DNA of 64,000 bases from Gammaproteobacteria bacterium (lineage in GTDB: Bacteria; Pseudomonadota; Gammaproteobacteria; Ga0077554; Ga007554): NCBI GenBank assembly GCA_021731145.1, contig JAKFXX010000005.1, positions 18,821-82,820 on the forward strand, in the 5' to 3' direction. Within the stretch, counting starts at the first letter, position 1. Each line of letters opens with the position of its first letter. Below, one piece after another: positions 316-4,078 of this stretch. A program made the position numbers and the translations under genes. The notes beneath the pieces were generated by a model. The model was not told where the DNA came from, did no database searches, and worked only from the letters and a program-made list of their open reading frames with translations.

Positions 316-1178
316 CTACTTCACCCTTTTATATATTGTTTTTCCAAGCAGATCAAAGCGATCCGTCACCCTATGCAACGATTCGGAATGCCCTATAAAG
401 AGATGCCCTGCCATATCTATCAGGTCGGCAAACCGGTTAAAAATCTTCTTTTGCGTTTCCTTGTCAAAATAGATAACGACATTCCTGCAAAAAATGATGT
501 CCAGCGGCCCATGAACCGGCCATTTCTCCATGAGGTTCAACTGCTGAAATGAGATTATGTCTCGCAATTCGGACGAAACCCGCACCACTCCCGCGTTAGT
601 TCCCTTCCCTTTCATAAACCATCGTGTCAAATGGCTCTGCTGCATTCCCTTGATTCTATCTTCGTTATAGATGCCTTGCTTCGCAGTAGCGAGCACATTG
701 GAGTCAATGTCGGTAGCCAGTATCTTGACATCCCAGTCTCGCGGCACACTTTCCTTGAGGACCATCGCTATCGAATAAGGCTCCTCTCCCGTTGAACACC
801 CGGCAGACCATATACGCAGCCGCCGGGTATGGGCTTTTTTTTTAACAGTTCAGGAAGAACAACTTTTTTCATATGATCAAAATGATGCATCTCTCTGAAA
901 AAGGCCGTAAGATTAGTCGTAATGGCGTTAGTGAAATTTATCATCTCCCCTTCATCACCCTCTTGCAGCAATATGCAATAATCTTTAAAACTATCCAGCC
1001 CGACCTGCCTCAACCTCCTCGACAAGCGGCTGTATACCAGTTCCTTCTTGGATTCCGACAGTGTGATGCCCATCCGTTGGTAAGCCAGCTCACGGAGCCA
1101 GTTGAAATCCTTGTCGGTGAATACGAATTCCCGATCTTTTTCCATTCCACATGTTTCCATGTTTAAAACTCTTCCCAT
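316..1178 (-). pseudogene. cheR: CheR-family chemoreceptor methyltransferase (Che2 type) split by a 1-nt frameshift inside a T9 (coding-strand A9) homopolymer at 835-843
   Basis: ORF 768-1178 is the CheR N-terminal all-alpha domain (FVFTDKDFNWLRELAYQRMGITL...LVYSRLSRRLR). ORF 316-765 is the SAM-methyltransferase domain. Reading the C-terminal frame back across the A-run gives KKKAHTRRLRIWSAGCSTGEEPYSIAMVLKE, the conserved CheR motif. An A10 tract would give one continuous ORF. Could equally be a homopolymer sequencing error. Confidence 0.65.
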
Positions 1179-4078
1179 TCGCCATCATCCTTGCTGGATT
1201 TGGGAGATGGGTTAGCCTTCGCACTGCTGCGCGAGGTACTGGAAAACTTCTCTCTCAATGATGGCGCCATTCCCTGCCTTCCAGAAGGGCTTTTATTGAC
1301 GCCGCCATTTCCACGCACTGCCGATGCGGCCTTGCCATTCACACTCCTACCCATACTTGCCGAACCTTGGCGGGAGGATTTTGCGGAAAGTCTGTCGATC
1401 TGCGAGACTCCCTGCCCCTCTTCATCAACTTTGAAAAATTCCATTAATTGCCCAAGACCCTGTGCCTGTTCATCCAGGGATTCACTGGCCGCCGCAGCTT
1501 CTTCCACTAAAGCGGCATTCTGTTGCGTCACCTCATCCATCTGCATGATTGCCTTATTGACTTGTTCAATACCGGCAGACTGCTCCTGGCTGGCCGACGC
1601 GATTTCGGCAATAATGTCGCTGACTTTTTTGACGGAACCGACGATCTCTTCCAGCGTCTTGCCAGAGGCATCAACCAAACGGCTTCCCTCCTCAACCTTC
1701 TCCACGCTGTCCTTGATAAGCGTCTTTATCTCCTTGGCCGCTGTCGCGCTACGTTGCGCCAGATTACGCACTTCGGCAGCCACAACTGCAAAACCGCGTC
1801 CTTGCTCTCCGGCACGCGCGGCTTCCACCGCAGCATTCAGCGCCAGAAGATTGGTCTGGAAAGCGATCTCATCAATAACTCCGATGATATCGGCGATTTT
1901 TTTGCTACTGCTATTAATAGCAGTCATTGCAATAATTGCATTACCAACAACCGATCCGCCTTTTTCAGCCTGTTCGCGGGCGCTGGCAGCCAGTTGATTG
2001 GCCTGCCTGGCGTTGTCCGCATTCTGTTTCACGGTGCTGGTCAACTCCTCCATGCTGGAAGCGGTCTCCTCTAGCGAAGATGCCTGCTCCTCAGTCCTCT
2101 GACTTAGATCCGTGTTCCCTTGTGATATTTCAGAAGCAGATGAGGTAATGCTGGATGCCGACTCTCGGATTTCCCCAACCATCTTGAGAAGATTTTCGAC
2201 GGAGGCATTCATATTATCTCTAAGAACGGCGAACTCTCCCTTGTAGTCACCCTCCATCTTTCGGGTAAGATCACCATCGGCCAATGTTGTTGCAATCTGA
2301 GTCGCTTCTTTAATGGGTGCAACAACCGAATCCACCATCTGGTTTATGCCTTCACCCAAATTCTTCATGAATCCTTCATACCTGGAGGTATCAATACGCT
2401 TGCTCAAGTCGCCATTAGCAGCGCCTTCAATTAAACCCTGAATTTGACGCTCGGCATCCATTTGTTCAGTTATGTCATCCCACTGAACCATATTCCCCAC
2501 CCAGTTGCCATACTGATCAACAATCGCCGTGGCATTTACGCTGAATTCAACATCCAGGAGTTTGATGTTAGCCTTCGCTGGCAATCTGCTCTTGTCGGCA
2601 AGCAGTGACCTTTGATGCGCAGGGTTTTTATGGAATTTATCAATACACAGCCCAACCAAATTTTTTGCATCAAAACCAGGGAATACATGCCGCAATTTAT
2701 CCTGACGCTTTTCCAGCAAAGAAACTACGGATGGATTCACATAGGTAATGACAAGATTACTATCACAAAGCATGATCGGCGATGTTGATCCGGAAATCGC
2801 TGACTCAAGACGGGCCACATCCGTCTCCTTTGCTCTCTGCTCTGTTACATCCTGCCATTCGAGACAGTTACCGATATAAGCGCCCTCTGAATCTTTAATC
2901 GCTGTAACATTGATGCGAAATATCAAAGGACCCACTTTGATATCCGTAGAATAAGGTAAATTCTTTGGATCCCCCAGCAGATTTCTCTGATGGGAGGGGT
3001 TTTTATGGAAAATATCGATGCAGGTTCCAACCACCTTCCCCACATCAAATGCAGGGTACAATGCCTTTAGCGCATCCGCGTTCTTTGTCAGAAGTTTCCT
3101 GGTGGCCTCATTGGCATACGTTATCACAAGGTCACGGTCGATCATCATGATAGCCGTCATTGCGCCCTCAACCGATGAATGCAGCCTGACCACCTCGTTT
3201 TCCTTTGATCGAAGAGAGGTTACATCGGACCATTCAAGACAATTCCCTATATAGTCGCCATGATCATCATTAATGGCCGTGACATTAATTCTGAACTTCA
3301 ATGGGCCGACTTGAATATCCGTTGAATAGGGAAGGTTTCTCGGGTCTCCAAGGATTCTTCTCTGATGAGAGGGGTTCTTATGGAAGATGTCTATACATGT
3401 CCCAATCAGATTGTCGACGCTGAATCCGGGGTACTGCCTTTTCAAGGTATCTTCATGCTCTCTTAAAAGGTTAACCGTTGATTGATTCGCATAGGTCACC
3501 ACCAGATCCCTGTCTATCATCATGATCGAAGTCATGGCTCCGTCCACAGCGGATTTCATTTTAATAGACTCCAAATCCTTCACGACAGGCGAGGATTTGA
3601 CATTTACCGCTTTCTTAACCTGTGCCATCTTTGTATTCTCCTTTGAGTAGGCCTTCAACATGATAGAAGCAACTGAATTTAACGCATTTGACCAAGCCGA
3701 ATGAACCTCATCTGTCCAAGTATTGCCAGCAAATTCCCGCATCACATCGAGCAATGTCACTGCAACAGCCTGGTAATATTCAGGCTCGGCGCCATAACCC
3801 TGGTGTCTTTTACCAAGAGCCGAAAGAATCCGTGTCATCTCCACGGGATTTCTCATATTTTTCACAACAAGACCAAGCGCGGAAAGCAATTTTTTCTGCT
3901 GATCCTTTATTGGAACACCTGAAAAAAGAGGCTTTACTACGGGGTATCGCCTAAACAATTCATCATAAAATCGTTTGGCAATAAGATCGCCTTTAGGGGA
4001 GAGCGCATTAAATGTTTTTTCAATCAATGCGACATCATTATTTTTACTTTCTTTCCTTGAAATAACAGACCTTACCAT
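1163..4078 (-). CDS. soluble methyl-accepting chemotaxis protein: N-terminal globin + three tandem PAS domains + MCP signalling domain, with C-terminal EWEEF pentapeptide (Aer2/McpB-like)
   Basis: 971-aa ORF with GGAG RBS. Residues ~15-145 look like a bacterial globin ([31 protein letters not shown]). Three ~110-aa PAS repeats each carry FHKNPxHQR. C-terminal methylation/signalling region: [45 protein letters not shown]. No hydrophobic TM stretch seen. Ends ...[11 protein letters not shown]. Confidence 0.85.
2468..3550 (-). repeat. three diverged tandem PAS-domain repeats (~375-nt period) inside the MCP gene
   Basis: Protein repeats: [22 protein letters not shown].../[22 protein letters not shown].../[22 protein letters not shown]... 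Each ends ...GNCLEW.DVT. Coordinates derived from residue positions 177-537. Confidence 0.6.

Follow-up and report, generated by a model that had tools for sequence, protein, structure and literature searches.

A flavohaemoglobin-lineage globin on a predicted tri-PAS-haem Aer2 chemoreceptor of a gammaproteobacterial F7 gene cluster

Introduction

The locus considered here lies at one end of a 64,000-nucleotide stretch of DNA from a Gammaproteobacteria bacterium (NCBI GenBank assembly GCA_021731145.1, contig JAKFXX010000005.1, positions 18,821 to 82,820 of the forward strand; the whole stretch is referred to as the window). It encodes a 971-residue chemoreceptor in which a globin precedes three PAS domains, a HAMP region and a methyl-accepting chemotaxis protein (MCP) signalling module, and it raises the question of what a globin would do on a receptor that is predicted to carry three haem-binding sensor domains already. 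The answer reached in this analysis has two parts of different strength. From about residue 150 on, the protein is, judged by its sequence, an Aer2 receptor of the tri-PAS kind, which is an already known kind. The composite reading of the whole protein, a cytoplasmic O2 chemoreceptor of the Aer2 family within an F7 chemosensory system that carries an accessory globin acting by proximity, is considered probable but not strongly so, and most of its uncertainty sits in the role of the globin.

For haem-PAS O2 sensing the Aer2 receptors serve as the model, and why their N-terminal arrangements differ is an open question of the field (PMC10107281). Four such arrangements have been described, none of them with a globin, and Aer2 and globin-coupled receptors are kept as separate classes (PMC10107281; 2026 aerotaxis review). 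A globin is likewise not mentioned in the account of F7 systems and their receptors by Ortega et al. (PMC7184735).

Results

Domain layout of the receptor

The receptor and its parts are laid out as follows, with positions given in the window.

1163..4078, minus strand: receptor open reading frame (ORF), 971 residues, ATG start and TAA stop; globin, tri-PAS-haem, di-HAMP, 36H MCP module, disordered tail and EWEEF, as predicted
3644..4036, minus strand: globin domain, residues 15-145; predicted 3-on-3 fold of the flavohaemoglobin/single-domain-globin lineage (Pfam, PDB, AlphaFold2, Foldseek)
3554..3643, minus strand: globin-to-PAS1 linker, residues 146-175; low AlphaFold2 confidence, variable length
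3209..3553, minus strand: PAS1, residues 176-290; predicted Aer2-type haem-PAS with E-eta His233, I-beta Trp283 and G-beta Tyr251
2834..3178, minus strand: PAS2, residues 301-415; predicted Aer2-type haem-PAS with His358, Trp408 and Tyr376, linked to PAS1 through a helix modelled with confidence (287-304)
2459..2803, minus strand: PAS3, residues 426-540; putative core signalling haem-PAS with His483 and Trp533, without the G-beta Tyr; aligned to the PaAer2 PAS structures 4hi4 and 3vol
2159..2458, minus strand: di-HAMP unit, residues 541-640 (Pfam HAMP_2 and HAMP, 3vol alignment, AlphaFold2 helices)
1424..2158, minus strand: kinase-control (MCP signalling) module of the 36H class; E664, E671, E678 and E860 are Tsr-equivalent methylation sites
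1181..1423, minus strand: C-terminal tether, residues 886-966; predicted to be disordered, and not conserved (model confidence, family alignment)
1166..1180, minus strand: C-terminal pentapeptide EWEEF, with W968 and F971 invariant

The Pfam domain scores of the receptor are far above chance. Globin (PF00042) matches residues 36-139 (E 9e-16, 58.9 bits), several PAS families cover residues 176-540, HAMP_2 and HAMP match at 568-631, and MCPsignal matches at 695-851 (E 1e-56). No transmembrane-like segment was seen in the receptor, and it is taken to be soluble because its highest 19-residue Kyte-Doolittle window, at 1.26, stays below what a membrane helix requires. Aer2 receptors are typically soluble, LiAer2 with its transmembrane segment being the exception, and by hydropathy the receptor falls in with the class.

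The initial annotation, made from the sequence alone, had described an N-terminal globin, three tandem PAS domains with a common FHKNP motif and possibly of haem type, an MCP signalling domain without a transmembrane segment and a C-terminal GEWEEF, and both this observation and its interpretation stand. Its two globin signature strings lie at residues 37-52 and 91-102 of a domain borne out by the Pfam match and the predicted fold, FHKNP recurs at residues 232, 357 and 482, and the reading of the protein as a soluble MCP agrees with the MCPsignal match and the low hydropathy maximum. As far as sequence can tell, the haem type of the PAS repeats is upheld by the kept His and Trp residues and by their close similarity to solved Aer2 PAS structures. 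GEWEEF is present at the C-terminus, and its EWEEF is identical to the pentapeptide of VvAer2.

An Aer2 receptor behind the globin

The part of the protein beyond the globin is covered by the NCBIfam model NF041847 ('aerotaxis transducer Aer2', a Vibrio equivalog) from residue 150 to 911 (profile positions 14-780 of 804), with a score of 1029 bits against an equivalog cutoff of 1200 bits, which marks it as a homologue and not as a Vibrio-type equivalog. Its sequence matches in the PDB include the PAS-HAMP structure of PaAer2 (3vol, matched by residues 419-633), the PaAer2 PAS domain (4hi4) and the PAS domain of Vibrio cholerae Aer2 (6ceq). PAS1 and PAS3 align to these solved domains without gaps, except for one surface-loop residue in the PaAer2 alignments, and the alignments span both IDxFHKNPxHQR, which contains the E-eta His, and xxWxD, which contains the I-beta Trp. 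In Aer2 PAS domains the former residue is the haem ligand and the latter forms a hydrogen bond to O2 (PMC10107281). In an AlphaFold model of residues 1-300, PAS1 superposes on 6ceq with a Foldseek template modelling (TM) score of 0.90 and a root-mean-square deviation (rmsd) of 1.1 Å. All three His/Trp pairs (H233/W283, H358/W408 and H483/W533) are invariant among 63 homologues of the same architecture, and a G-beta Tyr is found in PAS1 and PAS2, the site being occupied by Ala in PAS3. By analogy with the characterised receptors, the PAS domains are expected to bind haem and to signal O2.

Downstream, residues 584-894 align without a gap to residues 217-527 of Escherichia coli Tsr, and the signalling hairpin is therefore assigned to the 36H class. 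The Tsr-equivalent EE methylation sites are kept in at least 94% of homologues. The 3vol and Tsr alignments, Pfam and the AlphaFold2 model together trace the course expected of an Aer2 receptor, from the last PAS domain through a di-HAMP unit into a 36H kinase-control core. The C-terminal tether has a predicted local distance difference test (pLDDT) value below 50 at residues 889-971 and, across the family, 10% identity and 44% gaps, while W968 and F971 at its end do not vary. EWEEF satisfies the tether motif x-[HFYW]-x2-[HFYW], which was found in 96 of 130 Aer2-like receptors (Ortega et al. 2020, PMC7184735).

A globin of the flavohaemoglobin lineage

The solved globins closest in sequence are structures of Hell's Gate globin I (HGbI; 3s1i and 3ubc, E 2e-17), followed among the PDB matches by HGbRL (3wfw), Ralstonia flavohaemoglobin (1cqx), Vitreoscilla haemoglobin (VHb; 1vhb), thermoglobin and Campylobacter Cgb. 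The modelled domain (pLDDT above 90) superposes on 3s1i with a Foldseek TM score of 0.91 and an rmsd of 1.4 Å. Neither HemAT nor any globin-coupled sensor or protoglobin is present among the 61 PDB sequence matches or the top 50 Foldseek matches of the globin model, and Protoglobin (PF11563) scores 16.3 bits for this domain, under the Pfam cutoff of 25. In the classification that separates an F (flavohaemoglobin/single-domain) from an S (sensor) lineage of globins (PMC7475203), sequence and predicted fold place the domain in the F lineage and not in the S lineage that defines globin-coupled sensors. The receptor is not a classical globin-coupled sensor because its globin is of the flavohaemoglobin lineage. 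Pfam finds no FAD/NAD reductase domain in the receptor, and the globin resembles a single-domain globin rather than a flavohaemoglobin proper.

The haem pocket is strongly constrained. TyrB10 (Y38, 3965-3967), PheCD1 (F52), GlnE7 (Q60, 3899-3901) and HisF8 (H92, 3803-3805) are invariant in the family, LeuE11 (L64) is invariant or nearly so, and TyrG5 (Y102) is kept at 97%. Across homologues the globin averages 55% identity, equal to the figure for the di-HAMP unit, which argues that the globin is under purifying selection and is not decaying. A TyrB10/GlnE7 distal pair is, by analogy, typical of very high-affinity, O2/NO-reactive bacterial globins, and a similar chemistry may be expected here.

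The linker between globin and PAS1

In two AlphaFold models, residues 148-164 have pLDDT values below 50 between a globin and PAS domains at about 90, whereas each of the connectors, PAS1-PAS2 (287-304) and PAS2-PAS3 (412-430), forms one unbroken helix with pLDDT values of 81-89. The linker is compositionally simple, has a length of 17-59 residues with a single exception among 113 homologues (median 27) and shows a mean identity to the query of 25%. HemAT-type sensors relay their signal via a structured middle region (2026 aerotaxis review), and a rigid mechanical relay from the globin is disfavoured here because the linker is modelled with low confidence, varies and is unlike that region. An accessory role exercised by proximity is favoured for the globin since the linker appears flexible and is not conserved.

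Distribution of the fusion and of the globin module

A query of the 300 N-terminal residues retrieved just short or partial proteins, so the size of the family was judged from a search with the full-length receptor, which gave 2053 matches at E <= 1e-50. The census was taken over the best 120 clusters of that search (clustered at 90% identity). An N-terminal globin is present in 113 of them, with one globin and three PAS domains in 67 clusters, one globin and four to six PAS domains in 38 and at least two globin matches in 8. Almost all of these clusters end in xWxxF, and 60 in EWEEF itself. Named sources include Sulfuriflexus mobilis, Halioglobus japonicus, Halioglobus sp. HI00S01, a Colwellia sp., Thioalkalispiraceae metagenome-assembled genomes (MAGs) and hydrothermal-vent metagenomes, and the proteins are annotated merely as 'methyl-accepting chemotaxis protein'.

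The presence of PAS, globin and MCPsignal domains in one protein has been called 'a rare combination', seen in 7 of 8,075 complete genomes including those of H. japonicus and Colwellia sp. MT41 (PMC6194562, 2018). The H. japonicus protein belongs to the globin-Aer2 family described here, and the Colwellia strain among the present matches differs from MT41. The fusion is widespread, and its domain combination has been noticed once in silico yet is uncharacterised. The initial annotation had called the architecture unusual, which remains fair relative to characterised receptors; it is less so in that tri-PAS-haem Aer2 has been published and the globin fusion is shared by over 100 sequence clusters and appeared in an in silico list of 2018.

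The same type of globin recurs on other components of the signalling complex. The cheA gene of one related locus (L009, 5981-8596) is a single ORF of 871 residues with a complete globin, 48% identical to that of the window, between the P1/P2 (Hpt/P2) region and the dimerisation domain. Among the best 120 clusters found with this CheA as query, about 48 (795-891 residues) combine Hpt, Globin, H-kinase_dim, HATPase_c and CheW domains, and such proteins are annotated solely as CheA or CheW. An exhaustive search with the globin alone gave 6029 relatives at E <= 1e-3, of which 114 reach E <= 1e-30. One protein (P0248, encoded at 7549-9351 of L015) consists by Pfam of a CheW domain followed by three globins and is the product of an orphan gene outside any che cluster. 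The receptor of L009 carries three tandem globins, and copy number ranges from 1 to 3 among relatives. An array-dependent role is favoured over a single intramolecular relay because the globin module has been appended to receptor, kinase and adaptor in varying copy number. In the searchable literature, outside which subscription-only literature lies, no description of globin-CheA fusions was found, nor, the 2018 study apart, one of globin-PAS fusions.

Further occurrences of the module may be listed briefly. A globin-containing CheA is also encoded at 1-1761 of L007 and at 10001-12469 of L013, and the L013 contig carries this globin-CheA together with a ParA-like gene, a 982-residue globin-Aer2 receptor and an intact cheR. 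Tandem-globin giants include the 2461-residue P0246 with 14 units and P0249 with at least nine (Pfam); P0251 and P0253 have 12 and 8 matched stretches (globin search only). Two proteins that join leucine-rich repeats to a globin were found, one of them with a protein kinase domain.

Relay or structural module

The alternative that fares best against the accessory reading is a relay of the kind used by globin-coupled sensors, in which the ligand state of the globin would alter conformation or dimerisation and pass through PAS1, PAS2 and PAS3 to kinase control, making the protein a four-haem sensor with an extended range for O2 (or for O2 plus NO/CO). The N-terminal position of the globin as in HemAT, the strict conservation of its pocket with a constraint like that of the di-HAMP unit, and the finding that upstream PAS domains modulate downstream ones in VcAer2 and VvAer2 (PMC10107281) all speak for such a relay. 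Yet the globin is of the F and not the S lineage, and it is joined by a variable, non-conserved and low-confidence linker where the PAS domains are joined by helices. In VvAer2, moreover, PAS3 alone signals and PAS1 is largely dispensable (PMC10107281), and the globin module also occurs in CheA and CheW, where a PAS relay is absent; its copy number varies from one to three. The relay is consequently regarded as unlikely.

A second alternative would make the globin a structural or localisation module, an N-terminal cap, dimeriser or membrane/lipid element comparable to the stabilising N-terminal tri-HAMP of PaAer2, with gas binding secondary. Aer2 arrays are membrane-associated though the receptors are soluble, and N-terminal regions have been proposed to serve niche roles (PMC10107281). 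HGbI, the closest solved globin, binds lipids with a change in haem coordination (PMC11203436), and many relatives bear an N-terminal G[YF]DPLAWM motif linked to a ParA-like gene, which suggests that the N-terminus is used in positioning. These points have to be set against the invariance of TyrB10, GlnE7, PheCD1 and HisF8, which indicates selection on ligand chemistry, and against VvAer2, which needs no N-terminal stabiliser (PMC10107281). A mainly structural globin is thus considered improbable, and an accessory globin that acts by proximity is preferred to both alternatives.

A candidate internal start signal at the junction

The boundary between globin and Aer2 part coincides with one further element.

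3626..3643, minus strand: candidate internal start, with the Shine-Dalgarno-like AAGGAG (3638-3643), a 9-nt spacer and the in-frame ATG of Met151 (3626-3628); predicted product of about 821 residues

A Met lies no more than 20 residues past the end of the globin in 109 of 113 proteins, for which chance would predict about 51%. Around this junction Met, 76 of the 109 proteins have Glu at position -4; Asp, Gly or Glu is usual at -3, as is Ala or Ser at +1. In all ten loci (the window and nine related loci, which are mutually related and thus not independent trials) GGAG, GAGG or AGGA is found 6-9 nt 5' of the junction ATG, against a background of ~6-9%, and the motif is kept although the residues it encodes vary (KENTK, SEDNT, KEQP, AEATA and others). 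Of the 234 other in-frame ATGs in these genes only 13 (5.6%) have the same motif at equal spacing before them, as do 7.2% of codons overall. The Halioglobus orthologue is present in GenBank in a long form of 1092 residues and a short form of 899 residues, and two short annotations begin exactly at the junction Met. Our reading of these sequences is that the junction site may be the original start of aer2, predating the fusion of a globin gene in front of it, and that it is probably still used, yielding a globin-less isoform of about 821 residues beside the fusion.

That the two parts are in effect separate proteins, the main product being an ordinary tri-PAS Aer2 from Met151 and the long form minor or non-functional, would account for the start signal in ten of ten loci, for the Met in nearly all family members and for the two GenBank annotations. 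It is nevertheless a very unlikely account: the frame is always kept, with no stop codon between globin and Aer2 part in any homologue (more than 100 clusters), the upstream ATG at 4078 has its own GGAG 10 nt 5', and the globin is under purifying selection.

Gene cluster and host context

The receptor gene lies within a run of chemotaxis genes, all on the same strand.

7325..7618, minus strand: STAS-domain gene (anti-sigma-factor antagonist-like), of the kind that opens stage-1 F7 clusters (Pfam, identical contigs)
6917..7279, minus strand: cheY (Pfam, identical contigs)
4834..6912, minus strand: cheA, with Hpt, dimerisation, HATPase and CheW-like domains and, in this genome, without a globin
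4305..4820, minus strand: cheW (Pfam, identical contigs)
4118-4285, minus strand: 55-residue acidic ORF (MIIKDHADLS...SSMAWNG) between cheW and the receptor gene, with no Pfam match on record
316..1178, minus strand: cheR, frameshifted; a CheR_N ORF (768-1178) and a CheR SAM-domain ORF (316-765), with the break at an A9 run (835-843)
1..308, minus strand: 5' part of cheD, the first ~102 codons, cut at the window edge

Two Logan-assembled contigs, which match the window with 100% identity over 8.2 kb and run on past its edge, encode the exact receptor protein as well. The combined gene order is STAS, cheY, cheA, cheW, the 55-residue ORF, receptor, cheR, cheD, cheB and a 408-residue mcpA-like receptor, the last two being read from contig L001. 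In stage 1 of the F7 class the order is STAS, cheY, cheA, cheW (two copies), aer2-like, cheR, cheD, cheB, mcpA-like and, in some cases, STAS and phosphatase genes, and the Che2 cluster of Pseudomonas aeruginosa is a rearranged stage 2 of the same class (Ortega et al. 2020, PMC7184735). The window cluster fits the stage-1 order, with one cheW and the 55-residue ORF where two cheW-like genes are usual; L001 ends after the mcpA-like gene, before the place of the trailing STAS and phosphatase genes. The neighbourhood had been matched to Che2 in the initial annotation, which is right as to the F7 class but not as to the order, which is that of stage 1 (V. cholerae-like) and not of the stage-2 Che2. 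Ten related loci keep the stage-1 F7 order, which was seen in Gammaproteobacteria MAGs, Sulfuriflexus, Haliea, Kineobactrum and Chromatiales.

The cluster follows fliF-fliJ in the window and fliE-fliK in L013. Guanine-plus-cytosine (GC) content is 36-50% over the che cluster (window positions 1-7700), 0.53-0.61 in the adjacent fli genes and about 51-62% over the fli genes and the rest of the window (7700-64000). The same step is seen in the closest relative, L003, and in none of L013, L005 and L012. These values suggest that the F7 cluster was acquired or replaced from a donor of lower GC content at a conserved place next to the fli genes. Insertion of a random island as the explanation of the GC drop was considered and is tempered by the F7 cluster following fliE-J/K in relatives too and by the step shared with L003.

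Several side observations concern the cluster and its surroundings. The 55-residue ORF occupies the slot of the second cheW-like gene of stage-1 F7 clusters, and in some relatives (L005-L009 and L013) a ParA-like ATPase gene stands between cheW and receptor. This gene co-occurs with a Lys-rich N-terminal G[YF]DPLAWM on the receptor in the five of five loci that were examined for both (L005-L009), and the window, L003, L004 and L012 have neither. The pattern suggests ParA-based positioning of these cytoplasmic receptors that has been lost in the lineage of the window. On L001, CheD (7901-8554) ends in GEVDLF and the mcpA-like receptor (9680-10906) in GDIELF; both tails resemble EWEEF, but an aliphatic residue replaces the Trp, and McpA-like receptors have a conserved C-terminus that is not a tether (Ortega et al., PMC7184735). 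Promoter-like sites in the window occur at the number expected from shuffled sequence (16 versus 15.5), no convincing terminator follows the receptor gene on its strand, and operon boundaries are not callable from the promoter and terminator scan. The sole matches of an Rfam scan of the window are two adjacent tRNA genes (42504-42693, plus strand).

The split cheR gene

The A9 run that breaks cheR is the longest homopolymer in the 64 kb; it reads tta aaa aaa aag ccc and holds the dnaX-type slippery heptamer A_AAA_AAG. An extra A or a -1 shift at the run gives a CheR of 287 residues, which can be aligned over its whole length with Salmonella CheR (1af7, and 1bc5 in complex with the pentapeptide; E 1e-67). 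The beta-subdomain loop of CheR marks pentapeptide binding, and in this loop the alignment is ungapped (fmkgkgtnagvvrv against fmrgtgpheglvrv). The run is identical in two separately assembled sequencing runs, and cheR is intact in all relatives examined, with at most A5 at that site. A conserved programmed frameshift was rejected on the grounds that relatives have an intact cheR and no long A-run there, and the sequences identify the split as a lineage-specific slippage frameshift. The gene could be a pseudogene, could be phase-variable or could be rescued by transcriptional or ribosomal slippage. The likeness drawn in the initial annotation between GEWEEF and the GWEEF that tethers CheR2 is sustained as regards the pentapeptide, which fits the motif, and qualified as regards the adjacent CheR by the frameshift in its gene, which had been overlooked.

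The first in-frame start codon of cheR (ATG, 1176-1178) overlaps the codons of EWEEF (1166-1180), and the two ORFs share 16 nt. Later in-frame Met codons of cheR (M7 and M12) could be the true start, and in L013 receptor and cheR do not overlap.

A decaying, horizontally acquired cluster, in which the receptor is intact in sequence and the system non-functional in this strain, would fit the frameshift in two separately assembled runs and the low GC content relative to the fli genes, but it is hardly credible given that the other genes are intact, that the receptor retains every invariant residue, that the A9 run with A_AAA_AAG permits rescue by slippage and that L003, with the same GC step, has an intact cheR.

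Discussion

The scheme proposed for this receptor starts from what the analysis itself shows: which domains are present, which ligand residues are conserved, how the parts are predicted to fold, what the linker is like, where the gene lies and how the family is distributed. Haem binding, O2 signalling, the role of the globin and initiation at the internal start go beyond this and are inferred. To judge from the homologous VvAer2, VcAer2 and PaAer2, O2 would bind a b-type haem held by His483 of PAS3 and be stabilised by Trp533, and the resulting change in PAS3 would pass through the di-HAMP unit to the 36H kinase-control hairpin and so to the CheA of the F7 cluster. PAS1 and PAS2, positioned on rigid helices, would tune the output of PAS3. 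For adaptation the receptor would rely on its EE methylation sites and on a CheR that EWEEF recruits from the end of a disordered tether of about 80 residues. The globin would provide a fourth haem site, with His92 as the proximal ligand and TyrB10 and GlnE7 as the distal pair, and would serve as an accessory module acting by proximity in the receptor array and not as the primary transmitter. It may bind or consume O2 or NO beside the PAS haems and thereby tune or protect them, or alternatively make ligand-dependent contacts. The internal ribosome-binding site and ATG would produce a globin-less isoform and in this way set the ratio of globin to receptor.

It should be noted that several points weigh against this composite. 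The family is known from sequences and predicted structures, and all four haem sites are predictions; low AlphaFold2 confidence in the linker does not prove disorder, and a monomer model cannot reveal docking of the globin in a dimer or an array. A stoichiometric globin has a small buffering capacity, no reductase was identified that could partner it in an NO-dioxygenase cycle, and the position of the flavohaemoglobin Glu H23 is Tyr144 here (a less certain placement, made with VHb and Hmp reference sequences, the PDB alignments ending nearby). The equivalog cutoff of the Vibrio Aer2 model is missed. The Shine-Dalgarno motif and the junction ATG might be a relic without function, maintained by constraint at the peptide level, and with a frameshifted cheR and foreign GC content the system may be decaying in this strain.

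A wider interpretation is possible, although it is offered only tentatively and is doubtful as it stands. The F7 arrays of a clade of mostly sulfur-oxidising and marine Gammaproteobacteria might carry a built-in haemoglobin, in which globins on Aer2 (one to three copies), within CheA and on a stand-alone CheW would form a haem layer that sets the local O2/NO or redox state for the PAS haems, and the internal start would yield a long isoform with the globin and a short one without it and so adjust globin dosage, much as with CheA-L and CheA-S.

The flavohaemoglobin-type globin form would be a fifth Aer2 arrangement, past the four that are characterised, and to our knowledge the first chemoreceptor class with a globin of the F lineage instead of the sensor lineage. 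The presence of the module in CheA and CheW, together with its flexible tether, suggests a use of globins in signalling that is unlike the globin-coupled-sensor paradigm. O2/sulfide interfaces are the habitat of the hosts, and sensing of nanomolar O2 and the chemistry of NO or sulfide are important there. Three observations are new here and raise the value of the receptor as an experimental target: its globin is flexibly tethered, an internal start signal is conserved, and the module recurs in CheA and CheW.

Comparison with known systems places the protein between classes. With HemAT and other globin-coupled sensors it shares an N-terminal haem globin on a soluble MCP and an expected aerotaxis-type function. 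Theirs is a protoglobin-related globin of the S lineage joined directly to the output, whereas the window globin is of the F lineage, is flexibly tethered and is followed by three predicted haem-PAS domains and a di-HAMP unit before the MCP module. In sequence and fold the globin is closest to HGbI and HGbRL of Methylacidiphilum, VHb and the globin domains of flavohaemoglobins, with TyrB10, GlnE7, PheCD1, LeuE11, HisF8 and TyrG5 in common, and HGbRL is another chimeric globin of the F lineage. Those proteins are stand-alone or fused to a reductase or to Roadblock/LC7 and not to chemotaxis proteins, and flavohaemoglobins have Glu at H23 where the window globin appears to have Tyr. Cc_4972 of Corallococcus coralloides (PMC6194562) likewise combines PAS, globin and MCPsignal domains and was proposed to be an improved aerotaxis sensor, but its globin is a truncated one (Bac_globin, PF01152, not PF00042), and that in silico study did not connect the combination with Aer2, with the ligands of haem-PAS domains, with F7 systems or with pentapeptides.

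The nearer relatives are found among the Aer2 receptors. PaAer2 (McpB), with CheR2 in the stage-2 Che2 system, has in common with the window receptor a PAS-haem domain, a di-HAMP unit, a 36H core and a C-terminal xWEEF, in PaAer2 the tether for the CheR of its cluster, as well as a gene that stands between cheW on one side and cheR on the other, cheD and cheB lying downstream. It differs in its single PAS domain behind three HAMP domains and in the rearranged order of Che2, the window order being stage-1-like, with STAS first and the mcpA-like gene last, and the window cheR being frameshifted. The closest likeness in build is to VvAer2 (PMC10107281), a soluble receptor characterised as a tri-PAS-haem O2 sensor, whose three tandem PAS domains bear the E-eta His and the I-beta Trp and which further has a di-HAMP unit, a 36H module and EWEEF; in it, too, the G-beta Tyr is restricted to PAS1 and PAS2. 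VvAer2 has 807 residues and no globin, and host and cluster context differ; to this common plan the window protein adds some 150 N-terminal residues.

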